From: Anaerolineales bacterium UBA3499
Lineage (GTDB): Bacteria; Chloroflexota; Anaerolineae; Anaerolineales; UBA11657
NCBI GenBank assembly: GCA_002377585.1
Contig: DFQC01000025.1
Coordinates: forward strand, 1,117-65,116
Direction of reading: 5' to 3'
Length of the DNA stretch: 64,000 nt
In this document: one piece after another, positions 39,755 to 54,422 of the stretch
How the letters are laid out: each line of letters opens with the position of its first letter
Numbering within the stretch: the first letter of the stretch is position 1
Notes under the pieces: model-generated
What the model was told of the DNA's origin: nothing
Databases searched by the model: none
Seen by the model: the letters and a program-made list of their open reading frames with translations, nothing else
Translations under genes and position numbers: made by a program

Positions 39755-41401
39755 TTAGGGTCGAGAATCAACTTGGGACATAACAGATGAAATAGCCTTA
39801 GGGGTCATATCAAGCACATCACTAGCAAGTACACTTGCTGTCGTACCTACCTCTGACAAGGCTATTGTTCCTGCTAGGCCATGTAAAAAAGTTCCGACTA
39901 TAGCAGCTTGATAAGCTTGCATTCCCTGCGCAAGAAGTCCTGCAATCACGCCAGCCAACACATCTCCAGTCCCTGCGCAAGCTAGTGCTGAAGTAGCGAA
40001 AGGATTGACACTAACATCACCCTCAGGTGTAGCCACCACAGTAAAAGCACCCTTGAGAACAATAATATGTCCCCATTCGGCCGCAAAGCGACTAGCCATA
40101 CCAATCCGATCTGATTGTATATCATCTATTGACAGTCCGGTAAGAAAAGCCATCTCACCAGGATGCGGAGTAAGAACAGAATTCTCTGGCAAACGCAAAT
40201 ACCATTCCGGCAAATCTGCCAGTAATCTCAAACCATCAGCGTCGACTACTGTAGGAGGTAATTGCACTATATCGAATTCAGCATTAGTGTTACCCTTACT
40301 TTTAACAGCAAAACCTATACCTCCACTTACATCATCTTGAACAGATGAAAATATTCCATGTATGAAATCTGCTGTTGGCCTTTCAGTACCCAAACCAGGA
40401 CCAAGCAACAATGAATCGACTTTTTCAAATGCTTGACGAAGAATAGAAACTCCAGAATCAGAAATTACACCCATATCGCTAGGTAAAATTATATAAGTAG
40501 CCTCTGGCAACTGTGAAGCAACAATCCCATGAATAATGCCTGGCACAGCGACAGTCACCAAACCTGTACCCACCCTATACGCGCCTGCTGCAGCCAAATA
40601 AGCTGCTCCGGAGTAATTAATTGATCCAGCCACTACTAGAGCAGTACCAAAAGTGCCTTTATGAGAGTCACGTGACCGTTCAGGTATCATTGAGCCAACA
40701 TCCGCTCCGGAAGCCAGATTTAATTGTATTGAATCAAGTGCGGACAAGTCTGAGGGCCACCCTATATCAGCTAAAACCAATTCTCCAACTGCATTTGCTC
40801 CTGGAAATATAAATTGACCGATCTTCGCTGCCCCAAAAGTAATACTAACATCAGCATACAAAGTATTATCATCAACCACACCCGTATCACAATCCAAACC
40901 GGATGGACAATCAACTGCAACACGCAATACTTCGCGTCCATCCAATTCAACTGATGCAACTCCTAACATTTTAGCTGCCATGCTCTTGAGTGGAACTCTA
41001 GCACCAGTACCGAATATGGCATCTATGAAAACATTTGCTCTACGAATTTCCCTTATATATGTCTCCATTTCATAATCATCTTCTGGGGTAATCACGGTAG
41101 CACCAGCCAGCAAAGCTTTTTGCTGATTATCAGCATTATTATCATTCGTATTTATAGTAAAAACATTGACACTGGCACCAGACGCAGCTAATAACCTGGC
41201 AACAACAAATCCGTCTCCTCCATTGTTTCCAGGACCCGTAACAACCACAAAACTTTTGGAGGGTACATCGGTAATTCTCTCGCATATATGCTCAAACACG
41301 GCACTACCTGCCATTTCCATCATATGATCATAGGACACACCGCAAGAAAATGCTTCAGACTCAAGCATATGCATTTGTTCAACAGTAACTATTTTTGGCA
41401 T
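39755..41401 (-). CDS. nnr: Bifunctional NAD(P)H-hydrate repair enzyme Nnr (epimerase plus ADP-dependent dehydratase)
   Basis: YjeF_N motif VVTGPGNNGGDGFVVAR. C-terminal kinase-like domain HKGTFG.., GTGDVLAGVIAGLLAQG. Confidence 0.9.
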   Translation of the reverse strand: MPKIVTVEQMHMLESEAFSCGVSYDHMMEMAGSAVFEHICERITDVPSKSFVVVTGPGNNGGDGFVVARLLAASGASVNVFTINTNDNNADNQQKALLAGATVITPEDDYEMETYIREIRRANVFIDAIFGTGARVPLKSMAAKMLGVASVELDGREVLRVAVDCPSGLDCDTGVVDDNTLYADVSITFGAAKIGQFIFPGANAVGELVLADIGWPSDLSALDSIQLNLASGADVGSMIPERSRDSHKGTFGTALVVAGSINYSGAAYLAAAGAYRVGTGLVTVAVPGIIHGIVASQLPEATYIILPSDMGVISDSGVSILRQAFEKVDSLLLGPGLGTERPTADFIHGIFSSVQDDVSGGIGFAVKSKGNTNAEFDIVQLPPTVVDADGLRLLADLPEWYLRLPENSVLTPHPGEMAFLTGLSIDDIQSDRIGMASRFAAEWGHIIVLKGAFTVVATPEGDVSVNPFATSALACAGTGDVLAGVIAGLLAQGMQAYQAAIVGTFLHGLAGTIALSEVGTTASVLASDVLDMTPKAISSVMSQVDSRP

Positions 41402-41466
41402 TGATTTGGGTCCACAAAGTTTGCAGATGATACCATGCTGTCACTCATACTGACTTGTTGTAATAG

Positions 41467-41540
41467 TACCCCCGAGAGGACTTGAACCCCTAACCTGCGG
41501 ATTAGAAGTCCGCCGCTCTATCCACTTGAGCTACGGGGGC
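41467..41540 (-). tRNA. tRNA-Arg (anticodon TCT)
   Basis: Reverse complement is GCCCCCGTAGCTCAAGTGGATAGAGCGGCGGACTTCTAATCCGCAGGTTAGGGGTTCAAGTCCTCTCGGGGGTA. It has a 7-bp acceptor stem, a GCGGA/TCCGC anticodon stem with loop CT-TCT-AA, and a GGTTCAAGTCC T-arm. 74 nt, no encoded CCA. Confidence 0.9.
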
Positions 41541-41607: not shown

Positions 41608-42675
41608 CTAAAGTATTCCTAGTGGATCTTCCGGATTGACACCTGAGGTGAAAGGTATCTTACGATCAACATTGGTCAATTGATAAACAAGTCCCAGCCA
41701 ATTGTTGAACACTGCTTTACCAGTATCTCTCCAAGTATTATGTAGATACATTTGAATCTGCTCTTCTGGAAAAGGAGGTTGTACTTTACCTTGTTTTTTA
41801 GCAATCCTTACTTGTTCCTGATAATTGTCGGCAATGGCCATGGCTTCAATATCAAAATAGTTATCAGGATGAGGCGGATAATCTACAATATCATCGCTGT
41901 AAAAAAGTTGAATATCTCGCTTATACTCCTTGAGCAAGCTACCCGTATAATATTCAGGATGCCCCTGCAAATAAACCACACGAAACTGGTCTGGACTGAC
42001 AGCCATATGTACCTCACCATCACTGTTTTCCACTAAAACTCCGACGCCGACTTCTTGGAGTTGCTCACGAGTCACATCATTATGACGTGAGTGAGGAACG
42101 TCAAATCGCGTATTAATATCTCGCAAAATAGGATGTTTCGTTTCAACAACATAATGATTATATACACCCCATTTTTTTCGTTCTAACGATTTGCGATCAA
42201 TATCATATAGTTGCTTTAATAGCGCATGCGTGGCCAAACACGAACATAATACTGACGTAACATTTTCCAAAGCCCAGTTGAACACAGCATTCAATGGCTC
42301 CCAAAAAATCTGCTGGTCTAGAACAGGACTTTGTATATTAGCACCCGTAATAATAAGAGCATCTAGCCCTAAATGACGTATCTGCTCAAAATCCATGTAA
42401 TATTTATTAATATATGCCTGCGTATCCTTGCTGCGTGGTAGTCCATTTACTGAAAATGGGTGTACAAATAGTTGGGCAATTTGGTTGCAGCTACCAACTA
42501 ACCTTATAAACTGTTGTTCAGTTACACGAAGAGCGGAATCAGGCATCAAGTTAAGTAAGCCTATATGCAATTCCCGAATATCCTGGTGAGTAGCCCGATC
42601 CAAAGTTAATACGGTTTGACCATCCTGCCGTAACTTTTCAAAAGCAGGTAAAGAATTGTGAGCAACTATTGGCAT
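41608..42675 (-). CDS. metA: Homoserine O-acyltransferase MetA
   Basis: MPIVAHNSLPAFEKLRQDG.., LIITGA, SVLCSCLATHA, LQGHPEY, NNWLGLVYQ. Confidence 0.9.
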   Translation of the reverse strand: MPIVAHNSLPAFEKLRQDGQTVLTLDRATHQDIRELHIGLLNLMPDSALRVTEQQFIRLVGSCNQIAQLFVHPFSVNGLPRSKDTQAYINKYYMDFEQIRHLGLDALIITGANIQSPVLDQQIFWEPLNAVFNWALENVTSVLCSCLATHALLKQLYDIDRKSLERKKWGVYNHYVVETKHPILRDINTRFDVPHSRHNDVTREQLQEVGVGVLVENSDGEVHMAVSPDQFRVVYLQGHPEYYTGSLLKEYKRDIQLFYSDDIVDYPPHPDNYFDIEAMAIADNYQEQVRIAKKQGKVQPPFPEEQIQMYLHNTWRDTGKAVFNNWLGLVYQLTNVDRKIPFTSGVNPEDPLGIL

Positions 42676-42697: not shown

Positions 42698-43189
42698 TTA
42701 TTGTAAGCCTTCACGAACTGAGGTAATACGATTGGTATTAAATCCAAGCCAATGCATACGTCCAATGTAACGAGCATGTTCAACTTTGACGCAACGATCC
42801 ATTATTACTGACAACCCACCCTTTTCACCAATTAGTGCACCATTCTCATTGATCACTGTAAATTGACACCATAGACTAGATGCTTTAATCGCCACCGCCT
42901 CCTCAGCAATAGCAGGCAAGGCTGCAGGAGCTCTAAAGACGTTGACCATATCAACCTCAACCGGAACGTCCATAAGAGTTTCATAGCTTGCCTCCCCTAA
43001 CACCTCCGACTCACGTGGATTCACTGGAATAATTCGATATCCATGACTTTGCAGATAGGCGCCAACAAAATAACTAGCTCTTAAGACGTTACTTGAGAGA
43101 CCGACTATAGCTATCGTCTTGGTATTATGTAATAATTTCTGAATAGTGCCTTTATCCTGATATCTAGTTACATCAAATGTAGTGGTCAT
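42698..43189 (-). CDS. CoA-binding domain protein (YccU/YneT-like)
   Basis: IAIVGLSSNVLRASYFVGAYLQSHGYRIIPVNP.., VDMVNVFR. Confidence 0.8.
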   Translation of the reverse strand: MTTTFDVTRYQDKGTIQKLLHNTKTIAIVGLSSNVLRASYFVGAYLQSHGYRIIPVNPRESEVLGEASYETLMDVPVEVDMVNVFRAPAALPAIAEEAVAIKASSLWCQFTVINENGALIGEKGGLSVIMDRCVKVEHARYIGRMHWLGFNTNRITSVREGLQ

Positions 43190-43200
43190 ACTAGTTTCAC

Positions 43201-44511
43201 CTATTTGTTATCTTTACTTTGCAGTTCTAAGAAGCCTTGGTCCAAATCCCATATCAAATCATCAATTTGCTCAATCCCCACTGAAAGTCGAATAGTACCC
43301 TGACCGATCCCTGCAGCCACTAACTCTTCATCACTGAGCTGCCTATGCGTGGTGCTAGCAGGATGAATCACTAAACTTTTTGTGTCTCCTACATTTGCTA
43401 AATGGGACCATAATGTGAGACCACTGATAAAATCCTGACCAGCCTGACGACCGCCCTCTAGATCAAACGTGAACACAGCTCCAGCACCCTTCGGCAGATA
43501 TTTATTTGCTAAAACATTGTATTTGCTTCCTTCAAGACTAGGATACATGACTTTGCTTACTAGATCATGCTGGTCTAGATATTCCGCAACAGCTTTTGCA
43601 TTGGCAACATGACGATCCATACGAATTGAAAGTGTCTCCATGCCTTGCAGGAATAAGAAAGCATTTAATGGGCTCATGGCTGCACCAAGGTCACGTAAAG
43701 TTTCAGATCTTAGCTTCATCAGATATCCATACATGCCAAATGTGTCGTGAAATGCAAGACCATGGTAGGCTGGTGATGGTTCCGCTATGACTGGAAATTT
43801 GCCGTTGGACCAATTAAACTCACCTGAATCTACTACTACTCCCCCGATACTGGTCCCATGTCCACCAATAAACTTAGTCGCAGAGTGAACTACAATGTCT
43901 GCTCCCCACTCAATGGGTCGACACAGATAAGGGGAAGCAAATGTGTTATCAATCATCAATGGTATGTCATGCTCATGTGCAAGCACTGCAATTGCTTCAA
44001 TATCTAACACATTACTAGTTGGATTACCTATCGTTTCTCCATAAAAAAGTTTTGTATTATCTTGAATTGCCTGTCGCCAAGCATCAAGGTTATCAGGATC
44101 AACCCAACTCACTTCAACGGACATCTTATGAAATTGATGCTTAAATTGGTTGATAGTACCACCATAAATAGCTGTTGAGGATACTACATGATCACCGGGG
44201 TCCAACATAGTGAATAAAGCTGCTGCCTGAGCTGCAATACCACTCGCAAAACCTACTGCTCCACAGCCACCTTCCAGACTAGCAATCCGTTCCTCAAAAG
44301 CAGCTACGGTGGGATTCATTATACGAGAATAAGTATTCCCATATTCTTTTAGATCAAAATAAGATGCGGCCGATTCGGAATCTTCAAACACAAAACTGGT
44401 TGTTTGAAAGATGGGTACAGCACGGGCTCCCGTGTTTGGATCTGGTCGTGCTCCGGCATGTACCTGCCGGGTATCAAAACCAAAATCGCGACTCTTATCA
44501 AGTTTGCTCAT
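43201..44511 (-). CDS. metY: O-acetylhomoserine sulfhydrylase (MetY)
   Basis: TRQVHAG.., YSRIMNPT, DNTFASPYLCRPIEWGADIVVHSATKFIGGHGTSIGGVVV, SLGDTKSLVIHPASTTH. Confidence 0.9.
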   Translation of the reverse strand: MSKLDKSRDFGFDTRQVHAGARPDPNTGARAVPIFQTTSFVFEDSESAASYFDLKEYGNTYSRIMNPTVAAFEERIASLEGGCGAVGFASGIAAQAAALFTMLDPGDHVVSSTAIYGGTINQFKHQFHKMSVEVSWVDPDNLDAWRQAIQDNTKLFYGETIGNPTSNVLDIEAIAVLAHEHDIPLMIDNTFASPYLCRPIEWGADIVVHSATKFIGGHGTSIGGVVVDSGEFNWSNGKFPVIAEPSPAYHGLAFHDTFGMYGYLMKLRSETLRDLGAAMSPLNAFLFLQGMETLSIRMDRHVANAKAVAEYLDQHDLVSKVMYPSLEGSKYNVLANKYLPKGAGAVFTFDLEGGRQAGQDFISGLTLWSHLANVGDTKSLVIHPASTTHRQLSDEELVAAGIGQGTIRLSVGIEQIDDLIWDLDQGFLELQSKDNK

Positions 44512-44801: not shown

Positions 44802-46106
44802 TCAAGACAATTCTAAATCAGGCCGACTATCCAAAAATTTAGCAATACCCAAATAATCTTGTACAGCATCCGACAACTTATTAATACCATCCTCTAACAC
44901 AGTCAAATCAGATGCTATGGATAAACGTATATAATGCTGACCCTCCGAGCCAATCTTACCAAATGACTGACGATCCAAAAAAGCTATGTTGTGATAATAG
45001 AGCGCAAACATCTGAAATAATCCTGCAGGAGATGTTTGCGCTCTATCAGTGGAGCTCAAATTAGCATAATAATCAACCAGTCCCAGCTTATTACAAACAC
45101 TGGAAATATTAGGGAAGAGATAGAATGCGCCACCAGGTTTCGTACAAGAAATCCCTGAGATCTCGTTCAATTTCTTCAATATTGCATCACGTCTGACTTG
45201 AAAAGTCTCAACCATATTACCTATACATTTTTCCGACAAATGGCTTTCCAGAGCAACTCTAGCTCCCTCCTGATTATAAGGAGGAACACAGGAAAAATAA
45301 TTGATATTGAGGTTTTTGAAGATACTTGCTTCTTCCCTGGAGGGAAATAGTGCATAGCCAATTCTGCCACCAGTCCAAGCATAAGTTTTAGAAAATCCAC
45401 TAGCAATTATAGTCCTGCTTTCCATACCTGAAACTGAGGCGATAGAGGTATGATTTTGATCATCAAACACAATATTCTCATAGATCTCATCTGAATATAC
45501 CCTAACCTCCTCAGAACATTGTTCCAGAATAACTTCAGCAATGTCTTCTAACTGTTTGTGTGATACCACTCCACCTGTAGGATTTGACGGAAAGTTTAGA
45601 TAAATCAACTTAGTTTTGGGAGTTATCAGATTCGCAAGAGCTTCCGGAGTAAAAGCAAAGTTGGATTTCTCATTTAAATGCAAAGGAATTGGCACTGCAC
45701 CTACATATCTCACAAATGACTCATAGATTGGGAATCCAGGGCTTGGATATATGACCTCATCTCCGGGATTACAGTAAACCTGCTGAGATAATCCTATAGA
45801 TGGTTTGCCACCTGGGAAAACAACTACTCTCTCAGGATCTACAACAATACCACGCGTCTCAGATATCTGATTAGATATTGCCTCTCTAAGAGTCAGCAAA
45901 CCCTGCGGGTCACAGTAATGAGTGTTGTCGAGATCTAACTGCCTCTTGATTTCATCCTTTATGTGAGTTGGTACGGGAAAGTCAGGCTCACCAAGATTTA
46001 GTTTGACGACATTACCTGATAAATGCTCAACAACATCTATATGTGGACCAATCTTGAAAGCATTTTCTGTGTCAATACTAAACGTCCTGTCAGAATAAAG
46101 TTTCAT
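44802..46106 (-). CDS. Class I/II PLP-dependent aminotransferase
   Basis: LNLGEPDFP, FPSNPTGG, SGFSKTYAWTGGRIGY (PLP Lys), R near the C-terminus. Substrate cannot be told from sequence. Confidence 0.8.
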   Translation of the reverse strand: MKLYSDRTFSIDTENAFKIGPHIDVVEHLSGNVVKLNLGEPDFPVPTHIKDEIKRQLDLDNTHYCDPQGLLTLREAISNQISETRGIVVDPERVVVFPGGKPSIGLSQQVYCNPGDEVIYPSPGFPIYESFVRYVGAVPIPLHLNEKSNFAFTPEALANLITPKTKLIYLNFPSNPTGGVVSHKQLEDIAEVILEQCSEEVRVYSDEIYENIVFDDQNHTSIASVSGMESRTIIASGFSKTYAWTGGRIGYALFPSREEASIFKNLNINYFSCVPPYNQEGARVALESHLSEKCIGNMVETFQVRRDAILKKLNEISGISCTKPGGAFYLFPNISSVCNKLGLVDYYANLSSTDRAQTSPAGLFQMFALYYHNIAFLDRQSFGKIGSEGQHYIRLSIASDLTVLEDGINKLSDAVQDYLGIAKFLDSRPDLELS

Positions 46107-46907: not shown

Positions 46908-48959
46908 ATGAAATATTTAACCCTAAAGCACCTATTCTATGTGGTGATTTTTTCTCTTCTAATAACGTCTTGTGACGCTCCAGACCCCGTGTCTCCGGGA
47001 GTAGCAGTTGAAGAATCAACCAAATCACTAGAACCAACTAAATCTATTGATATACCTACTCAAACCCCGAAAAACGCAATAGATTCAGATGAAATCAATT
47101 ATGCGATTTATACAGATTCGAAATCAAAAATATCAATTATATACCCTGAAAACTGGCAACAAATACCACGTGAAAATTACGTAGAATTTCATGGTCCAAA
47201 TGGCGATGTAATTTTCGAAGTTTTATACGTACATTTTCATGAACTTGACCAATGGGCCAATCAATATCTCTCAGAGTCTAATTACAAAGAAGAGTCTCGT
47301 GAGACTCTTCAATCTCCATTAGGATATATGAGTATCGGTAGCCTCCGTGATGGAGCTAAACATGCACGAGTAATTATTGGAAACGAGAAAGCTGGTCTCA
47401 TACTATTAGAAGCTACCACAGGTCCAGAAGATGAGTTCGAGGAGCATTTAGAACAATTCCAAATCATACTTGATTCTCTAAACCTGAAAAATGCCTCATT
47501 GTTTGATGGTTCAAACAATGACAACACTGAACATACAAAAGATGATTCCAATGAGCCCAACGAAGAAGATACTGAAAGCGCTCTGACAAAGACAATACCT
47601 GAGGACTCTGATACAACCATTTATACGGACTCTAAAACAGGATTGTCGTTTAGTTATCCAGCAAATTGGACCCTATTCCAACACGAGCATGACATAGAAT
47701 TCCAAGGACCAATTGGTGCGGTAACAATTATGATTACAGACGTACCCATGCGAGAACTAGAACAATTCGCACAGGACTTTTTCACTGAATCTGATGAATA
47801 CAAGGAAGAATCTCGCAATGCATTAGATGAGCCATCAGGATATATAAGCATAGGCAATCTTAGAGATGGAGCCCAACAAGCTCGTGTAATCATTGGTAAT
47901 GAACAAACAGACATAATAATTTTTGAAGCTACCACAGGCCCAGAAGATGATTTCGAAGAGCATTTGAAACAATTCCAAAATATACTTAATTCAATAAGCT
48001 TGCTAGAAGTCGATTCAGATGAATCGCAGGCACAGCAACAAGATTACAGTCCTACGCCAATCCCAAATTATGGTCCTAGTGCAATAACAATAGTGAATAC
48101 CAGTGAATTTAGTACTGACATAATGCAAGAATGGGCTTCATATTCAGAAGCTAAAATGGCTAATAGGAGAGCAGATATCCTAATGGTATTATGGCCAGTC
48201 GGAGAATTTGTAAAAGAAGGCGGTTTCTCTCACCCATTCGAGACAATGGAAGTAGTAATTACACCCGATGAAATTGATTACCTCATGAATGAAATAGAAA
48301 CGTGGCTTAGCAATCAACCCTGTATTTTGGATGACCCAGTACGATATTATGAAGAAGTAGAAATGTACCGTGATTGGCTTACTAGAGGTGCTGATGCATC
48401 AACTCAAATTACTATATGTCCAGCATCTAGATTAGTCCTGATGGGCCTACCGCCTGATATGAGGGACACCAATGATCCCAGATACCCAATAAACCTACAA
48501 GACTTTTTCATACATGAGCTTTATCATGCGTTACAACAAGATCTAATGGACGAATCCTGTAGGAGACTCGAAGAAAGATTGGATCGTGAAGAAACTAATA
48601 CGCCCTGGCTGGTCGAAGGCGGAGCAGACTATTTCGCTAAGCATGTAGTAGCCGAACTCACTGGAGCTTTTGATCCAATCAACACAATCCTACGCAATGC
48701 TCTTAATGCTTCCAGAGAAGAAGGTACTAATATCTATCAAGGCGGCATAGACAAAACCGGTGCTGCTGCTATGCAAATTCTTATTGAACTTGGAAAACTG
48801 GATCAAGAAAGGATTCTAGATGGCAGTCTATTTCATAACTGTGCCCGAGAAATCGAATACACTAATGATAAACCATATGTACTACAAGCAAAGAATTCTT
48901 GGTATATGATAGAAGAACGCAATGGTAGGTTTGTATTTAGTGAAGGGGTTCTAAGATAA
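46908..48959 (+). CDS. Lipoprotein with two tandem PsbP/DcrB-like modules and a C-terminal HExxH domain (putative secreted metalloprotease)
   Basis: Lipobox LLITSC. Two ~126-aa repeats. FIHELYHALQQD holds HELYH at 48513-48527. Confidence 0.65.
   Translation: MKYLTLKHLFYVVIFSLLITSCDAPDPVSPGVAVEESTKSLEPTKSIDIPTQTPKNAIDSDEINYAIYTDSKSKISIIYPENWQQIPRENYVEFHGPNGDVIFEVLYVHFHELDQWANQYLSESNYKEESRETLQSPLGYMSIGSLRDGAKHARVIIGNEKAGLILLEATTGPEDEFEEHLEQFQIILDSLNLKNASLFDGSNNDNTEHTKDDSNEPNEEDTESALTKTIPEDSDTTIYTDSKTGLSFSYPANWTLFQHEHDIEFQGPIGAVTIMITDVPMRELEQFAQDFFTESDEYKEESRNALDEPSGYISIGNLRDGAQQARVIIGNEQTDIIIFEATTGPEDDFEEHLKQFQNILNSISLLEVDSDESQAQQQDYSPTPIPNYGPSAITIVNTSEFSTDIMQEWASYSEAKMANRRADILMVLWPVGEFVKEGGFSHPFETMEVVITPDEIDYLMNEIETWLSNQPCILDDPVRYYEEVEMYRDWLTRGADASTQITICPASRLVLMGLPPDMRDTNDPRYPINLQDFFIHELYHALQQDLMDESCRRLEERLDREETNTPWLVEGGADYFAKHVVAELTGAFDPINTILRNALNASREEGTNIYQGGIDKTGAAAMQILIELGKLDQERILDGSLFHNCAREIEYTNDKPYVLQAKNSWYMIEERNGRFVFSEGVLR
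47109..48002 (+). repeat. Intragenic tandem duplication (47109-47486 and 47622-48002, offset 513 nt)
   Basis: Copy 1: YTDSKSKISIIYPENW...YKEESRETL..GYMSIGSLRDGAKHARVIIGNE..LLEATTGPEDEFEEHLEQFQIILDSLNL. Copy 2: YTDSKTGLSFSYPANW...YKEESRNAL..GYISIGNLRDGAQQARVIIGNE..IFEATTGPEDDFEEHLKQFQNILNSISL. The 3' halves are also close at the DNA level. Confidence 0.85.
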
Positions 48960-49126: not shown

Positions 49127-49303
49127 TTAGATGACATTAAATACAAGATAAATCACTAATACACAAAAACTTAGCGCCAGAACTATCTTTACCGATCGCA
49201 AAGCGAATCTGATAGCAAGACCAAGTATACCTAGGGTAGCGAGAACGAACGACCAGTTAGGTATCCGAGAGAAGATATCAGGAAAATCAAGGTAATCAGC
49301 CAT
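49127..49303 (-). CDS. Small membrane protein (58 aa, 2 TM segments)
   Basis: GGAGG lies 8 nt before the ATG at 49303. MADYLDFPDIFSRIPNWSFVLATLGILGLAIRF..ALSFCVLVIYLVFNVI. Confidence 0.5.
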   Translation of the reverse strand: MADYLDFPDIFSRIPNWSFVLATLGILGLAIRFALRSVKIVLALSFCVLVIYLVFNVI

Positions 49304-49378
49304 AGATGCACCCTCCACAAGCTTACTAGATGCAAAAAAGATGCCAATTAAATTAATTTGTCGATTTTTGTGCTTTGC

Positions 49379-49405
49379 AAAAAGCTACTCTTCAACAGGT
49401 AGCTT
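49379..49405 (-). terminator. Weak hairpin terminator overlapping the stop codon of the Ubl gene
   Basis: The minus strand reads AAGCTAC-ctgttgaaga-GTAGCTT followed by TTTGC. The stem is 7 bp and the T-run is short. Confidence 0.3.
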
Positions 49406-49655
49406 ATTTATTTCCACCACTAACTGGTGGGAATAAACTAATTGAGTCAGAATCATTTAGGCAAGTATCCAACTCGCATGCAGCGTTATTGATAAAAGCA
49501 TTGCGCAACAAACCATTAGGTAACTCTAGTACTTCTGCAAGACCAATAACTGTAGTTCCAAAAGGAACTGTTACTGAGAATGGATTAGAATTATCCGGAC
49601 CAGGATGATAATCTCGGAGCAAAGCGTATAAGCGCACCTGTACTGTAATGTTCAT
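49404..49655 (-). CDS. MoaD/ThiS-family ubiquitin-like beta-grasp protein ending GG-NK
   Basis: MNITVQVRLYALLRDY...SISLFPPVSGGNK*. FPPVSGG is the MoaD/ThiS C-terminal hallmark, here followed by two extra residues. The ATG lies 1 nt after the upstream stop (TAGcATG). Confidence 0.75.
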   Translation of the reverse strand: MNITVQVRLYALLRDYHPGPDNSNPFSVTVPFGTTVIGLAEVLELPNGLLRNAFINNAACELDTCLNDSDSISLFPPVSGGNK

Positions 49656-49656
49656 G

Positions 49657-50109
49657 CTAAACTGGACGCAATCCCTTGTATACTTTTCTGCCCCCAAGCA
49701 TCCGGAATATTGTGCTTTCTTGACCTACGCGCCCTATCAAAGCCGCCAAATCCTTTATGGTAAGAGGTTGATTTCCATGAGCTAGCAATACTCGAAAAAC
49801 TGAATCGACCATTGCCATGCCCTCTGGTATATAACCTTCCTGGGTCGAGCAATGACTACGCACAACATATTCAACTGAATCAATCGAAAACACTTCTCCA
49901 GTTTGAGGATTAAACCAGTCTATTAGCTTGCGTTCACTATTACCGACATAGTCAAACTCTTTTTGATGACTTTCACAAAGCAGGCTATGGAGATAGGTAT
50001 GATATTCATCTTCACGTAGTGCCCACCAAGCAAAGTCAATATGCAAAAGAGTTTCATGGACAGCAATCTCAATATTTTCACTGCGCTTATCACCAGTAGC
50101 GGGTTTCAT
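49657..50109 (-). CDS. Hypothetical protein (~150 aa), with a possible C-terminal winged-helix/HARE-like segment
   Basis: No catalytic motif recognised. The C-terminus is VFRVLLAHGNQPLTIKDLAALIGRV. Start is ATG 50109 or TTG 50121. Translationally coupled to the Ubl gene. Confidence 0.6.
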   Translation of the reverse strand: MKPATGDKRSENIEIAVHETLLHIDFAWWALREDEYHTYLHSLLCESHQKEFDYVGNSERKLIDWFNPQTGEVFSIDSVEYVVRSHCSTQEGYIPEGMAMVDSVFRVLLAHGNQPLTIKDLAALIGRVGQESTIFRMLGGRKVYKGLRPV

Positions 50110-50127
50110 TCTAAATACCAAGACATA

Positions 50128-51711
50128 CTATGACGAATATCTCCAGTAAGCATCCCCTACATATATATAAGATAAATTACTGGCCAACTCTGCAAGAATA
50201 TATTCTGGGGGAGTCCTCCTTACAACATTAACCGCACTATATAATGTGTGCGTATGAACATTTCCCTGTGGTGTCAGTTGGGACAACTGTCGAAACATTA
50301 GTTCAACAATTCTTTCAACAGTTACACCATTACGTGATAAATCATCAGACAAGGCATCAACACCACCTACATCCTCAACATTTATGATATTTTCTTCAAC
50401 ACAACCCACAGAAATAGCACACTTACTTAGCTCAAAGTAAAATCTTTTATCCTCAACAAACAATGTCCTAACCCAATCCTTTATAGGATTGCGTTTCTCA
50501 ATAGATACGATACTCTCGCTCAGATCATCTCCCGGTGCAATAGTAATTCGAGCTCCTGTGATCACATCATACTTCTTGTAGAGTGGTGCCATGCCCCAAA
50601 CAAAACGCTCTTTCAATGCAACCCAACCTGGTAGACGCTGACCTGATAACGCATCAACAAATGTTATTTTTACACGGGGAGAAACAAGGGCGGAAGGGAA
50701 AAGGTGTGCTGTGTAAGCACTTAAAGGCAGCGTACCTGCCCTCAGATGTGGATAAGTCAGCACCACTTCAACCGAACCCTCAGTATCTTGCACTTCTATG
50801 TTTTCACTAAACTCATCACGCAACTTCAGAGACAGATTCCTCATGTCTTCCGTTAATGACTCCGTTATATAGCCAACAGACTCACATGCAAGATATCTCT
50901 CAGACATAACAATATCTCTGGGTTTCATATCAGTCAAATACCAGAGAACCTGACCAGAAGGACCAACATCTTCAAAACGTTCATCCCTCTGGAGAGCATA
51001 GTTAAGAGAAAAGACCAACAACTCCTCTTCACTCTCATCAGGCGTCATGCCGATATCCTTCAAAAGTTCCTTTGTAGATAATGGACGTCCGTCAGCCAAA
51101 TCTAGAGCAGCTTCAGCCAAGTTGAGATATCCAGTGTTGATATCAACTAACAAATCTACAGGAAACCAAGATCCGGACAAACGCACCAAATCGTTGTATT
51201 CAAGTAATTGAGCTTCAATTTTGTCTTCTAGGACTTGAGTATGCTCTTGAAATATCTGTTGCGCAGTTTCTGTCAATGGATTGGTATGACCATTACGTCC
51301 AAATTCAGTACTATCAATCAAAGAATTGTTTGCCATACCACTAACAAATTCACGAGTAATGTCATCCTCACATCGTACCTGCAAAACCCCATATTCACCA
51401 TAATCGGGATTATCACCATTACGAATTGAAATCACTTCACCATTTAAACCACCTAATAATGGAAAATTAATCGTTTGACCAGACACATAGGTTTTGTCAG
51501 GGCTATAAACTTCATCCCATACTTTACGCTCATTGCCAATCTTTTCTTGACGCTGTAGAAGTTGGCGTTCTAACAACGCCACAACAATTGCCGCAGTACT
51601 CCAAGGAGTCCCAGCTTCAAGAAGCAAGTGAATTACGTAATCGTAGTCTTCAGAATGGAGCGTAAAAGATTCAATCCATTCTATATCGGGCAAATTGTTG
51701 TTTGGTATCAC
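50128..51711 (-). CDS. Hypothetical protein (527 aa), family not recognised
   Basis: GTG start. No Walker, Rossmann or metal motifs seen. The N-terminus YVIHLLLEAGTPWSTAAIVVALLER looks like a winged helix. The SH3/Tudor-like stretch VYSPDKTYVSGQTINFPLLGGLNGEVISI is noted by eye only. Confidence 0.65.
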   Translation of the reverse strand: MIPNNNLPDIEWIESFTLHSEDYDYVIHLLLEAGTPWSTAAIVVALLERQLLQRQEKIGNERKVWDEVYSPDKTYVSGQTINFPLLGGLNGEVISIRNGDNPDYGEYGVLQVRCEDDITREFVSGMANNSLIDSTEFGRNGHTNPLTETAQQIFQEHTQVLEDKIEAQLLEYNDLVRLSGSWFPVDLLVDINTGYLNLAEAALDLADGRPLSTKELLKDIGMTPDESEEELLVFSLNYALQRDERFEDVGPSGQVLWYLTDMKPRDIVMSERYLACESVGYITESLTEDMRNLSLKLRDEFSENIEVQDTEGSVEVVLTYPHLRAGTLPLSAYTAHLFPSALVSPRVKITFVDALSGQRLPGWVALKERFVWGMAPLYKKYDVITGARITIAPGDDLSESIVSIEKRNPIKDWVRTLFVEDKRFYFELSKCAISVGCVEENIINVEDVGGVDALSDDLSRNGVTVERIVELMFRQLSQLTPQGNVHTHTLYSAVNVVRRTPPEYILAELASNLSYIYVGDAYWRYSS

Positions 51712-51753
51712 AGAGAAATTTAGCGTGGCAAACCAGAGTCAAGTACTATCTTT

Positions 51754-51783
51754 ATTATAAGCGTATAACTAATACGTTGTCAA
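51754..51783 (-). promoter_or_regulatory. Consensus sigma-70-type promoter TTGACA-N18-TATAAT for the 527-aa/150-aa/Ubl operon
   Basis: The minus strand reads cacattaTTGACAacgtattagttatacgctTATAATaaa. The -10 element ends about 42 nt upstream of the GTG start. Confidence 0.55.
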
Positions 51784-51887: not shown

Positions 51888-53015
51888 CTAACCCACCTGA
51901 TCAGATTTTTCTGGAAAAAGACCCAGCACACCACTTTCATCAGCACTACAGATGCCACGCTCAGTAATTAAAGCTGTGACTAACCTAGAGGGTGTCACAT
52001 CAAATGCATAATTAGCGGCTGCGCTTGTTTCAGGAGTAAGTGCAACGGAACGAATCTCACCCTCATTTAAACCTATAATGTTTTTTACCTCTGACTCATC
52101 ACGCTGTTCAATAGGTATTTGAGCAATCCCATCCGTATTCTCCCAATCAAAAGTCGACGAAGGCAAAGCTACATAAAATGGAACGTTGTTGTCCTGTGCA
52201 GCTAAAGCCTTGAGATATGTGCCTATTTTGTTCGCAACATCACCTGTATAGACAGTACGATCAGATCCAGTGATTACCATGTCAACCATATCATGTTGCA
52301 TAAGGTGACCACCAACGTTGTCAGCAACAATGGTATGTGGAACTCCATGTTTACCAAGCTCCCATGCAGTTAAACGAGCACCTTGATTGCGTGGTCTTGT
52401 CTCGTCAACCCAGACATGGACCTTAATGCCATTGTCATGTGCCAAATATATAGGTGATGTAGCAGTTCCATAATCCACACACGCTAACCACCCAGCGTTA
52501 CAGTGAGTAAGGATGTTCACTGTTTCCCCGGATTTCGCCTCACTAATAGATTCAATCAGTCCAACACCATGTTCACCAATCAAACGACAAGACTCAAGCT
52601 CCTCAGCAGCAATTTCACCCGCAAGATCCAGTAATAGACGAATTTTTCCTTCCACATCTCCATCAAAATCCCGAAGACCTTTCATTTGACGGTCCAATGC
52701 CCAAAAAAGATTGACAGCTGTAGGACGCGAAGATCTCAACATGTCAACAGCTTGATCAATTTTCCGCATAAAATTTGACTCTGGCTCATCAGATACTGAA
52801 AGAGCAGCTAAATACATTCCATAAGCTGCAGTTACACCTATTAGAGGAGCACCACGCACATGCATATCTTTAATAGCAATAGCAGCCTCTTCTACAGTGG
52901 TTAGATCTTCTATTACAAACCTATGAGGCAACCATCTCTGATCAATAATCTGAACCACAGATTCATCATCTGATTTTATCCATATAGTGTTAAAGTGCTT
53001 ACCATCTACCTTCAT
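51888..53015 (-). CDS. mtnA: S-methyl-5-thioribose-1-phosphate isomerase (eIF-2B alpha/beta/delta family)
   Basis: IDQRWLPH, RGAPLIGVTAAYG, RPTAVNLFWAL, THCNAG, VDETRPRNQGARLTAWEL, GSDRTVYTGDVANKIGTY. Confidence 0.85.
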   Translation of the reverse strand: MKVDGKHFNTIWIKSDDESVVQIIDQRWLPHRFVIEDLTTVEEAAIAIKDMHVRGAPLIGVTAAYGMYLAALSVSDEPESNFMRKIDQAVDMLRSSRPTAVNLFWALDRQMKGLRDFDGDVEGKIRLLLDLAGEIAAEELESCRLIGEHGVGLIESISEAKSGETVNILTHCNAGWLACVDYGTATSPIYLAHDNGIKVHVWVDETRPRNQGARLTAWELGKHGVPHTIVADNVGGHLMQHDMVDMVITGSDRTVYTGDVANKIGTYLKALAAQDNNVPFYVALPSSTFDWENTDGIAQIPIEQRDESEVKNIIGLNEGEIRSVALTPETSAAANYAFDVTPSRLVTALITERGICSADESGVLGLFPEKSDQVG

Positions 53016-53030
53016 AAATGAAAATCCTCC

Positions 53031-54422
53031 TCAATAAATATCTTGCTTCATCCATTCCAACGGATTGACTTGGTTCCCATTGATCCATACTTCCCAATGC
53101 AGATGTGGTCCAGTAGATAAACCAGTATTACCGACGTACCCTATAAGGTCCCCACTAGCCAACTTTTGTCCTACAGATACTGCTGACTCTTGCTGATGCC
53201 AATACCCAGTAAATATCCCAATACCATGATCTATGATAGTTGTAGTTCCGCGAATGTCAAGTGTTTTCGACATGACAACCACCCCAGCAGCAGGCGCATA
53301 GATTGGCGTACCTTCTGATGCCCCAAAATCTACTCCCCCATGAAAAGTTCGGTAATCTTTCCCATTATAGCTCCTACGCATACCAAAACGAGTTGTAATG
53401 TAATCCATTGACATAGGATGGTCAAACCCATCTTCCCACAATTTGTTTTCAGTGAAGTTTGATACTGTATCTAAAATAATTTGATCCTCGGCGACACGTA
53501 CACTCTCATCCTCTAGCAACTTGGCCTTATCATGTCCCAAGACTAAACTCTGAGACCCATATTGCGCATCCGCAACTGGCAAACGCATCTCCAAAGTAAC
53601 TATCTGATCATCACTTCTCGTAGCAGTTACCCACAAATGGTATATTCCTGGATCAGACATTGCGTGCACACCTAAAAAAGACACTTGTCTTCCGTTGATT
53701 GACGAAAAATTCAATTTAGTACCATCAAAAAATCCTGTTACAGATGTTTCTTGATCTGTATCTACGCTAATTACTACTGGCTGACCCTGCCTTGGATGTT
53801 CATTGGATATGCTGATATCCTCAAATGGGCTAAGTATGCTGGCATTAGTTTTACTACCTGGAGAATACATCAATTCGCCCGGTAAAGTCACAGTTGCATT
53901 TGACCAGCCGTTTAATATCATAATTTCATAGGGACTACAATCAGCATTAATGGCCAAGCTCAGCAATGTATCCTGCTGCCCGATCACTGAAAATCCAACT
54001 TGATTGTATGTTTCCAGCTGGTCACTAATCTTATATATCAATGGCTGTCCGATATACAATGTATAAGGATTAACAATGCGATTCAGTTTAATTAGAGTAT
54101 CCAAATCGTTATTTAATTCGAGTGGCATGGAGAAGAACGATTCCCCTGGTTGTACCTTATGAGTATCAACTAAACCACTGACACCAAAATAATCCGACAG
54201 CAACAAAATCTGGCCAATTGATATCAATGATGGATTTTCTATGCCATTCAGTCTCTGAAGTGACTGTACACTACCCCCAAATTGCTGTGCAATAGAATAT
54301 AGAGTATCACCATCCTGTACTTGATACAAAGGCCCCTCTTTTTCCTCAGCATCAACAATACTATGAAAAGCAAATACTCCGCTAAAAAAAAAGAGGAAAA
54401 AACGAAATGGCAATGTGTTCAT
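53031..54422 (-). CDS. Secreted M23 peptidase with N-terminal LysM repeats
   Basis: Signal peptide. LysM: YQVQDGDTLYSIAQQFGGSVQSLQRLNGI.. plus two more degenerate copies. M23 motifs: HGGVDFGASEGTPIYAPAAGVV, GYVGNTGLSTGPHLHWEV. Confidence 0.85.
   Translation of the reverse strand: MNTLPFRFFLFFFSGVFAFHSIVDAEEKEGPLYQVQDGDTLYSIAQQFGGSVQSLQRLNGIENPSLISIGQILLLSDYFGVSGLVDTHKVQPGESFFSMPLELNNDLDTLIKLNRIVNPYTLYIGQPLIYKISDQLETYNQVGFSVIGQQDTLLSLAINADCSPYEIMILNGWSNATVTLPGELMYSPGSKTNASILSPFEDISISNEHPRQGQPVVISVDTDQETSVTGFFDGTKLNFSSINGRQVSFLGVHAMSDPGIYHLWVTATRSDDQIVTLEMRLPVADAQYGSQSLVLGHDKAKLLEDESVRVAEDQIILDTVSNFTENKLWEDGFDHPMSMDYITTRFGMRRSYNGKDYRTFHGGVDFGASEGTPIYAPAAGVVVMSKTLDIRGTTTIIDHGIGIFTGYWHQQESAVSVGQKLASGDLIGYVGNTGLSTGPHLHWEVWINGNQVNPLEWMKQDIY

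Follow-up and report, generated by a model that had tools for sequence, protein, structure and literature searches.

What does a ubiquitin-like protein (Ubl) of the MoaD/ThiS type do when it is encoded together with two proteins of no recognizable family? The question is raised by a three-gene operon on the minus strand of a 64,000-nucleotide stretch of DNA (hereafter the window) from Anaerolineales bacterium UBA3499 (GenBank assembly GCA_002377585.1, contig DFQC01000025.1, positions 1,117 to 65,116), which is identical to a Tara Oceans contig (P0001). The first gene, A (50128..51711), starts with GTG and codes for 527 amino acids (aa); the second, B (49657..50109), begins with ATG after a gap of 18 nucleotides (nt) and codes for 150 aa, or 154 aa from an alternative TTG start; the third, C (49404..49655), is set off from B by a single nucleotide (TAG-c-ATG) and encodes an 83-aa MoaD/ThiS/SAMP-type β-grasp protein, whose open reading frame (ORF) ends in SLFPPVSGGNK. 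A sigma-70-type promoter (TTGACA-N18-TATAAT, 51754..51783), which matches the consensus at 12/12 positions and is the sole perfect match in the region, precedes A, and a terminator-like hairpin with a following T-run (49377..49405; AAGCUAC...GUAGCUU, then UUUUUG; folding energy -13 kcal/mol, z = -2.1) starts within the stop codon of C. All these elements had been picked out in an earlier note made from the sequence alone and are in place; the self-contained three-gene operon that it saw in them does not survive a comparison across genomes. Instead, the unit is a two-gene core, A and B, that is found across the Anaerolineae, with C as an accessory, lineage-restricted gene, and we consider it probable, at roughly 0.7, that the Ubl functions with A-B.

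Relatives of A were confirmed in at least 571 species genomes by a scan of species-representative genomes, and all 80 of the species loci fetched come from Anaerolineae/Chloroflexota. In 87 of 88 loci B comes directly after A, the remaining one having just 59 nt of downstream sequence, and the pair is single-copy, class-wide and held in a fixed syntenic position beside housekeeping genes, in a block comprised of a response regulator, DUF192, a LysM-M23 peptidase (upstream of A-B in 46/63 loci) and then A-B, after which Hsp20 and Lon often come. The Ubl gene follows B in 7/80 species loci, with a DinB gene intervening in one of the seven, and about 90% of the species loci have A-B without it; the three-gene neighborhood that the earlier note envisaged hence holds for the A-B adjacency and, for the third gene, in this minority only. 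Clustering of the A proteins places the Ubl-bearing loci in about four or five clades (a marine one including the window, L013/L097, a soil one, L060, and L066), some members of which lack the Ubl.

The linkage is far stricter when viewed from the side of the Ubl. Metagenome contigs were scanned with an alignment of the Ubl orthologs, and all 36 strong members with upstream DNA directly follow B, and A as well where the contig reaches that far; the weaker matches are generic MoaD-like proteins ending in FPPVGGG, with neither A nor B nearby. Across 34 distinct loci, B and C overlap by 4 nt (NTGA) in 11 and stand 1 nt apart in 9 and 2-10 nt apart in 8, such that the gap, if any, is at most 10 nt in 28/34 and at least 28 nt in 6, and the tight junction spans lineages with an A protein identity of only ~37%. 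This translational coupling suggests that C is made together with B. No fourth gene is conserved downstream of the Ubl across clades. As judged from these contigs, the Ubl subfamily exists only as an appendage to the A-B pair, in a minority of lineages, a conserved and specific link that bears out the suspicion of an unusual, unrecognized partner set. A and B from loci with and without the Ubl differ at several positions, including a GQ insertion in B at 129-130, A K162, and B K145, although, with ~5 independent Ubl lineages, these differences are confounded by phylogeny.

The promoter tells a similar story for the core pair. The perfect version upstream of A is kept in relatives at 41-86% A protein identity, and, class-wide, a promoter with at least 10/12 matches lies upstream of A in 34/78 loci as against 3/390 control windows, typically 40-55 nt before the start codon. 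This conservation and enrichment point to A-B being a separately transcribed unit, probably a strongly transcribed one, and A-B(-C) is, on these predicted signals, a single transcription unit behind a near-consensus promoter. An Rfam scan near the operon found no riboswitch or leader, and there is no GC or other compositional anomaly at the operon. As a separate observation, the exact TTGACA-N18-TATAAT with its unusual 18-nt spacer stands upstream of A in loci L004, L006, L007, L009-L012 and L091-L097, which extend to relatives with no more than 41-50% identity in A. At the other end of the operon, about 85 nt 3' of the C stop codon and beyond the hairpin, is a small minus-strand ORF of ~58-63 aa (49127-49318), whose position is kept in eight marine-clade loci; its hydrophobic product (MADYLDFPDIFSRIPNW...) matches no Pfam family and is suggestive of a membrane protein, which could be co-transcribed with the operon if the hairpin is leaky.

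The MoaD/ThiS-type identity of C stands on several lines. It is recovered by the Pfam ThiS model (PF02597) with 26.5 bits against a cut-off of 22.5, its orthologs carry PF02597 as a precomputed domain, and a profile of C and its orthologs matches solved MoaD (1vjk, E 1e-8; 1fm0), SAMP1, CysO and ThiS, with the Gly-Gly of C aligned to the last residues of the solved MoaD, SAMP1 and CysO chains. Among the NCBIfam models, moaD_arch and SAMP1 come nearest, each under its cut-off, and the equivalog models likewise fall short (score/cut-off: TIGR01682 and PRK11130 for MoaD, 19.4/66.15 and 21.6/94; NF041918 for SAMP1, 24.5/60). C thus belongs to the ThiS/MoaD superfamily but to no named equivalog, and its subfamily has a signature of its own, an invariant HPGP motif together with FPP(V/A)xGG.

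In the window the Gly-Gly (G80-G81, codons at 49413-49418) is not the last pair of residues: it is followed by N82-K83 (49407-49412), the two pairs together occupying 49407..49418 on the minus strand. The Gly-Gly is kept in 42 of 45 complete ORF entries of the subfamily (one further ORF is cut by the contig end), and an exact Gly-Gly end is seen in 10/34 distinct C loci, the others carrying 1-37 extra residues. These tails are unconserved, coming in lengths of 0, 1-2, 4-6, 10-15 or 22-37 aa of unrelated sequence. A near-invariant Gly-Gly with a tail free to drift behind it is what one would expect of a Ubl that is trimmed at its C-terminus before being used. The three entries without Gly-Gly are a single lineage of identical sequence. 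In it (L007 7915-8199; L008; L011 12584-12949) the Ubl ORF is intact, with Gly-Gly replaced by CS and a 13-residue tail, a DinB_2 gene lies between B and the Ubl, and a DoxX gene comes after the latter; three independent assemblies agree exactly on this sequence, so that the change is not a sequencing error.

The partners proved harder to place. Among the candidates scored, A has 1528 homologs at E<=1e-3, all of them unnamed or "hypothetical", devoid of precomputed Pfam domains, and nearly all 520-540 aa long, and an exhaustive HMMER search yielded 1068 cluster representatives of uniform architecture. A has no significant match in Pfam, NCBIfam, PADLOC or PHROGs; 81 members scanned singly against Pfam revealed no recurrent or significant family; and PDB sequence searches with profiles of whole A, A 186-266 and A 446-527 found no relatives. 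An AlphaFold2 model of A is of good quality (predicted local distance difference test, pLDDT, 86.9; predicted template-modeling score, pTM, 0.69). Foldseek found no solved structure that resembles the entire model. The top matches are the B3 domains of VAL1, FUS3, LEC2 and ARF1 and the B3-like domains of LlaJI.R1 and NgoAVII (probability 0.82-1.0, target-normalized template-modeling score 0.54-0.69, E 0.03-0.45), along with the winged helices of the RNA polymerase (RNAP) delta subunit (RpoE; 9a6y_A, probability 0.95, E 0.06), ScpB, SelB and forkhead proteins. As all these E-values are 0.03 or weaker, the resemblance is one of fold only, and the search leaves A in no well-characterized family, as the earlier note had anticipated for its partners.

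Reading the domain boundaries from the secondary-structure map of the model, we infer the following architecture for A. An N-terminal winged-helix-like domain (A 11-63; 51523..51681), to which the RNAP delta match probably belongs, is followed by a small β domain (A 80-124) and a helical hairpin (A 145-184). The central winged helix (A 190-262; 50926..51144), with an H-H-H-β-β pattern in the model, holds invariant columns and is the most conserved block of A (GHLNLAEAxLD...RFDEVGPxGxVLWxL). Then comes a B3/EcoRII-N-like pseudobarrel with the motif LTYPHLRAGTLPLS (A 313-447; 50371..50775), to which the B3 matches are assigned because it is the sole β-rich stretch of about 130 residues, and finally a C-terminal winged helix, recognized by conservation and the model (A 448-527; 50131..50370; PQGxVHAxTLYSAVNVxRR...VGDAYW). 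An hhalign comparison of the central and C-terminal winged helices found no detectable relationship, and the central one gives a weak match to the winged helix of B (16% probability). A has a pI of 4.5 (family median 4.9), with all winged-helix domains net negative, which suits winged helices that act as protein scaffolds (RNAP delta N-domain, ScpB, UFL1) no less than ones that bind DNA directly. Neither the model nor Foldseek nor the library scans show an enzyme fold or a catalytic motif in A. On the model, therefore, A is most likely an acidic scaffold of three winged helices, a small β domain and a B3/EcoRII-N-like barrel.

B comprises two parts. Column conservation over 107 sequences delineates a novel N-terminal domain (B 13-95; 49825..50073), which carries the motif KPTLxTxFHIDFDWW (H23 and D25 97%, W28/W29 99-100%), followed by C45-x2-H48 (87% and 88%) and H86-C87 (89% and 91%); D64 and T70 are also near-invariant. 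The C45-x2-H48 ... H86-C87 set suggests a possible metal site in a domain without a recognizable fold. The C-terminal part (B 98-150; 49660..49818) is a putative winged helix, as indicated by the helix pattern of the model and by sub-threshold Pfam matches to WH_GDS1 in 22/60 members, HTH_20 in 14/60 and HARE-HTH in 3/60 (the last at E <=0.1); one B member matches Pfam UFL1 at E 0.026. B has nothing significant in Pfam, NCBIfam, PADLOC or PHROGs, a whole-B profile finds no PDB relatives, and its model (pLDDT 65) was built from 9 close sequences, which makes its Foldseek list meaningless.

The earlier note had seen winged-helix/HARE-like stretches in both partners. The winged helices are supported by the A model, the Foldseek matches and the sub-threshold Pfam matches; the HARE-HTH part of the claim lacks significance at the sequence level, PF05066 giving 0 Pfam matches in A (one of 81 members at E 0.13) and a non-significant E of 0.23 for B of the window, so that what speaks for HARE-HTH in A is the structural match to RNAP delta (probability 0.95, E 0.06). 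Nor is the N-terminal stretch of A that it had singled out the best candidate, the stretch that looks most like HARE-HTH by eye being A 190-262. Its statement that the partners lack E1 and protease motifs holds up: neither A nor B has a GxGxxG, JAMM (HxH...S..D) or CxxC motif, and no E1, JAMM or MoaE is encoded nearby. Because they have no family match and lack GxGxxG and JAMM motifs, and because the model of A resembles B3 and winged-helix domains alone, the partners are probably not enzymes of a known type; as far as these profiles can tell, neither of them falls into a family described so far.

A further pointer to the function of A comes from divergent relatives. In two proteins (P0216, P0224) a whole A-like module is fused N-terminally to an N6-adenine DNA methylase (N6_Mtase) domain, and these fusions tie the A-like module to DNA transactions. 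Neither B nor the Ubl is present at the fusion loci, which look like an undescribed restriction-modification or defense-type system built on the A-like module. At these loci (L156 8001-11318, L159 1742-4681), the gene after the fusion has a product of 289-295 aa, which to the eye looks like a type I specificity (HsdS) subunit but has no Pfam match on record; a second N6 methylase comes next. In L156 to L158 the fusion is preceded by a 1637-1810-aa RNaseT-DinG-RecQ helicase whose N-terminus is HARE-HTH-like by eye, and toxin-antitoxin genes (HEPN/Polbeta, PIN/PhD) occur near the fusions. A DinG-like helicase is found near canonical A in just 1/80 species loci.

In the window, an IF-2B/MtnA-family gene (51888-53015) and the LysM-M23 peptidase (53031-54422) lie upstream of the operon; on the downstream side are an aminotransferase (44802-46106), a metY-type sulfhydrylase (43201-44511), a CoA-binding protein (42698-43189), a homoserine O-acyltransferase (metA, 41608-42675), tRNA-Arg(TCT) (41466-41540) and a YjeF-type NAD(P)HX repair enzyme (39755-41401). 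The methionine cluster (mtnA, aminotransferase, metY, metA) adjoins the operon in the marine clade only, and the neighbors of the soil-clade A-B-Ubl loci are unrelated to it; this, and the lack of a riboswitch near the operon, leave little of the sulfur relay that the earlier note had tied to the neighboring Met genes. Pfam scans of the neighbors identified no cognate E1 (MoeB/ThiF) and no acceptor synthase (MoaE, ThiG, CysM). Also kept beside the operon in the marine clade is a plus-strand gene (46908-48959) for a secreted-looking 683-aa protein in which a PsbP-like domain occurs as an internal duplication and a C-terminal HELYH motif may mark a metalloprotease; its relatives show a faint Peptidase_M61 match. 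In the soil clade, an FdhD/NarQ gene, for the formate dehydrogenase molybdenum cofactor (Moco) sulfurtransferase, lies 178 nt 3' of the Ubl on the same strand in a single locus (L111 6415-7251), and two small tandem genes, PII-like/YaaQ-type by eye, come after the Ubl in L105, L106, L110, L121 and L122. At the window start is a ribosomal protein L10 leader (1607-1778; Rfam RF00557, 49.7 bits). A phage origin of the operon was considered and rejected; it has no PHROG family.

Given these observations, A and B most likely form a non-enzymatic complex, and the folds and fusions point to its work being associated with nucleic acids, the chromosome or a polymerase. We tentatively propose, at clearly less than even odds, that C is a dedicated covalent modifier of this complex. 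Under this proposal C would dock on A-B, its variable tail would be trimmed to expose the Gly-Gly, an E1-like enzyme of the MoeB/ThiF/UbaA type encoded elsewhere would adenylate the latter, and C would then be joined to lysines in A, in B or in proteins recruited by them, without an E2 or E3, on the pattern of the archaeal SAMPs and Thermus TtuB. Several observations weigh against it. The occurrence of A-B without the Ubl in about 90% of species implies that the function of the Ubl is dispensable. Motif-pattern searches of the window and of 1.9 Mb of related loci turned up no ThiF-type E1, E2 or credible JAMM, and PADLOC gave no relevant defense or Ubl-conjugation match; activation and processing are accordingly assumed to occur in trans. 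The lineage without Gly-Gly hints at a Gly-Gly-independent function or at gene decay, the acidity of A fits protein scaffolding better than plain DNA binding, and with broad regional synteny across the class some of the adjacency could be passive inheritance. The conjugate, the complex and the DNA binding of A-B-C are, moreover, all predictions from sequence.

The closest competitor of a covalent modifier is a Ubl that serves purely as a non-covalent third subunit or regulator of A-B, with its FPPVxGG tail lodged in a groove much as the MoaD tail inserts into MoaE, and with neither activation nor conjugation. The stop-start overlap or near contact with B in 28/34 loci, suggestive of subunits made in equal amounts, would suit it well, as would the missing E1 and protease nearby, the tolerance of tails of up to 37 aa and the one lineage that retains the ORF without Gly-Gly. 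We nonetheless regard it as rather unlikely: in Ubls that are about 50% identical, the Gly-Gly and the preceding FPP(V/A)x stay constant while everything after them drifts, which is the signature of a processed and activated C-terminus, and the Gly-Gly aligns exactly with the reactive end of MoaD and SAMP1. To our knowledge, almost all characterized bacterial ThiS/MoaD proteins with a Gly-Gly end are sulfur carriers. C could deliver sulfur as a thiocarboxylate to a reaction of A-B, the pair being an unrecognized sulfur-using enzyme or nucleic-acid thiolation complex that draws on free sulfide or some other donor in the majority of lineages and on a protein carrier in a few. Core enzymes that have a carrier in some lineages only are known (TtuA with or without TtuB, CysM with or without CysO, MetY with or without HcyS), and the distribution of C fits the accessory-carrier pattern of TtuA/TtuB and CysM/CysO; the conserved C-x2-H ... 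H-C set of B could bind a metal or cluster, and the short tails after the Gly-Gly recall QbsE and HcyS. Against this, neither A nor B has a catalytic fold or a PP-loop, radical-SAM or rhodanese feature, the A model consists of winged helices and a B3-like barrel, B has only two cysteines, too few for the usual [4Fe-4S] site, and, unlike in the QbsE and HcyS operons, there is no adjacent E1 or JAMM, all of which makes a sulfur carrier for A-B unlikely.

Two further explanations detach the Ubl from the pair or the trio from housekeeping. An ordinary metabolic carrier (for Moco, Met/Cys or thiamin), sitting beside A-B by inherited gene order alone, would draw on the strong synteny of the region across the class, the metY, metA and mtnA genes nearby in the marine clade, and the FdhD gene, which acts in Moco sulfuration, after the Ubl in soil locus L111. 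It is made improbable by the HPGP-motif Ubl never being found away from B in 36/36 informative metagenomic loci, by a junction that stays tight across deep divergence though the genes 3' of the Ubl are unconserved, by the confinement of FdhD to one locus and of adjoining Met genes to the marine clade, by scores far under the MoaD equivalog cut-offs (19-22 vs 66-94 bits), and by the want of an adjacent Moco or thiamin partner gene. That the trio is an anti-phage or restriction-like defense module is very improbable, even though domains of the B3-like and HARE-HTH-like kinds are characteristic of restriction enzymes and A-like modules are fused to N6-DNA methylases, with helicase-nuclease operons and toxin-antitoxin genes for neighbors: A-B is single-copy, class-wide and fixed in position among housekeeping genes, its conservation as a core gene pair being largely established; there are no PADLOC or PHROG matches and no compositional anomaly; and the trio codes for no nuclease or ATPase. 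An origin in a defense island was likewise rejected, on the core synteny, the absence of a defense family and the lack of a compositional anomaly. A more ambitious version of the covalent-modifier proposal, which we put forward as decidedly speculative and on present grounds distinctly unlikely, is that of a bacterial "chromatin-type" Ubl system, wherein a tail-processed modifier would be written onto, or by, the winged-helix/B3-barrel complex with a borrowed housekeeping E1; by analogy with UFL1-DDRGK1, the A-B scaffold would be both target and E3-like adaptor. If true, it would link an E2-less Ubl pathway to bacterial nucleic-acid-associated proteins, in parallel to the eukaryotic HARE-HTH proteins (ASXL) that are paired with ubiquitin machinery.

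No prior description of an A-B-Ubl system was found in the libraries and literature searched, and what appears to be new here is a Ubl with a previously undescribed, predicted non-enzymatic partner set, in a marine Anaerolineae bacterium. As Anaerolineae are abundant in oceans, soils and bioreactors, a role for A-B would fill a gap in the cell biology of Chloroflexota, and the domain make-up of the pair, together with the methylase fusions, suggests that this role is played out on DNA or with the transcription machinery. The known B3/EcoRII-N and winged-helix (HARE-HTH, RNAP delta, ScpB) domains provide the best structural matches of the A model, and the methylase fusions of A-like modules are in keeping with them. 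At the sequence level, however, A is a member of none of these families; it is strongly acidic, and no architecture described so far pairs its combination of domains with a coupled B.

Among Ubl systems, the likeness is closest to archaeal SAMP1/MoaD and Thermus TtuB, Ubls of the MoaD/ThiS type that combine sulfur carriage with E2-independent protein modification: like them, C is a small β-grasp protein with an FPPVxGG end, its nearest NCBIfam models are moaD_arch and SAMP1, and no E2 or E3 lies nearby. It departs from them in falling below every equivalog cut-off, in its own HPGP motif and variable tails, and in having winged-helix proteins rather than MoaE, TtuA or UbaA as partners, with no neighboring E1. 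QbsE/QbsD and HcyS/HcyD exemplify carriers whose C-terminal extension is removed by a JAMM protease, and the 1-2-residue extension after the Gly-Gly in many C orthologs is reminiscent of QbsE and HcyS; in contrast to these, the operon of C and its flanks have no JAMM, E1 or acceptor enzyme, the tail ranges over 0-37 aa, and metY is clade-specific. With the Bil/Bub-type operons (E1, E2, JAB, Ubl) C shares an operon with non-metabolic partners, but, unlike in the Bil, Bub and CBASS-associated operons, there is no E1, E2 or JAB, the context is not one of defense, and the A-B partners are core genes of the class. UFL1-DDRGK1, the UFM1 E3 ligase, is built of tandem winged helices from two proteins; its similarity to the present system (weak Foldseek match to 8b9x, probability 0.25) lacks significance and is of a kind common to winged-helix arrays in general, and C has no known E1 or E2, so that we use it as an analogy only, for a large multi-winged-helix A, a small winged-helix B and a Ubl. 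ThiS/MoaD-type proteins represent the prokaryotic roots of ubiquitin, and the genes beside them have until now indicated sulfur-transfer enzymes or else complete E1/E2/JAB cassettes; beside these, the exclusive linkage to A-B would imply a new type of target or adaptor for Ubl conjugation, or a new Ubl-containing complex.

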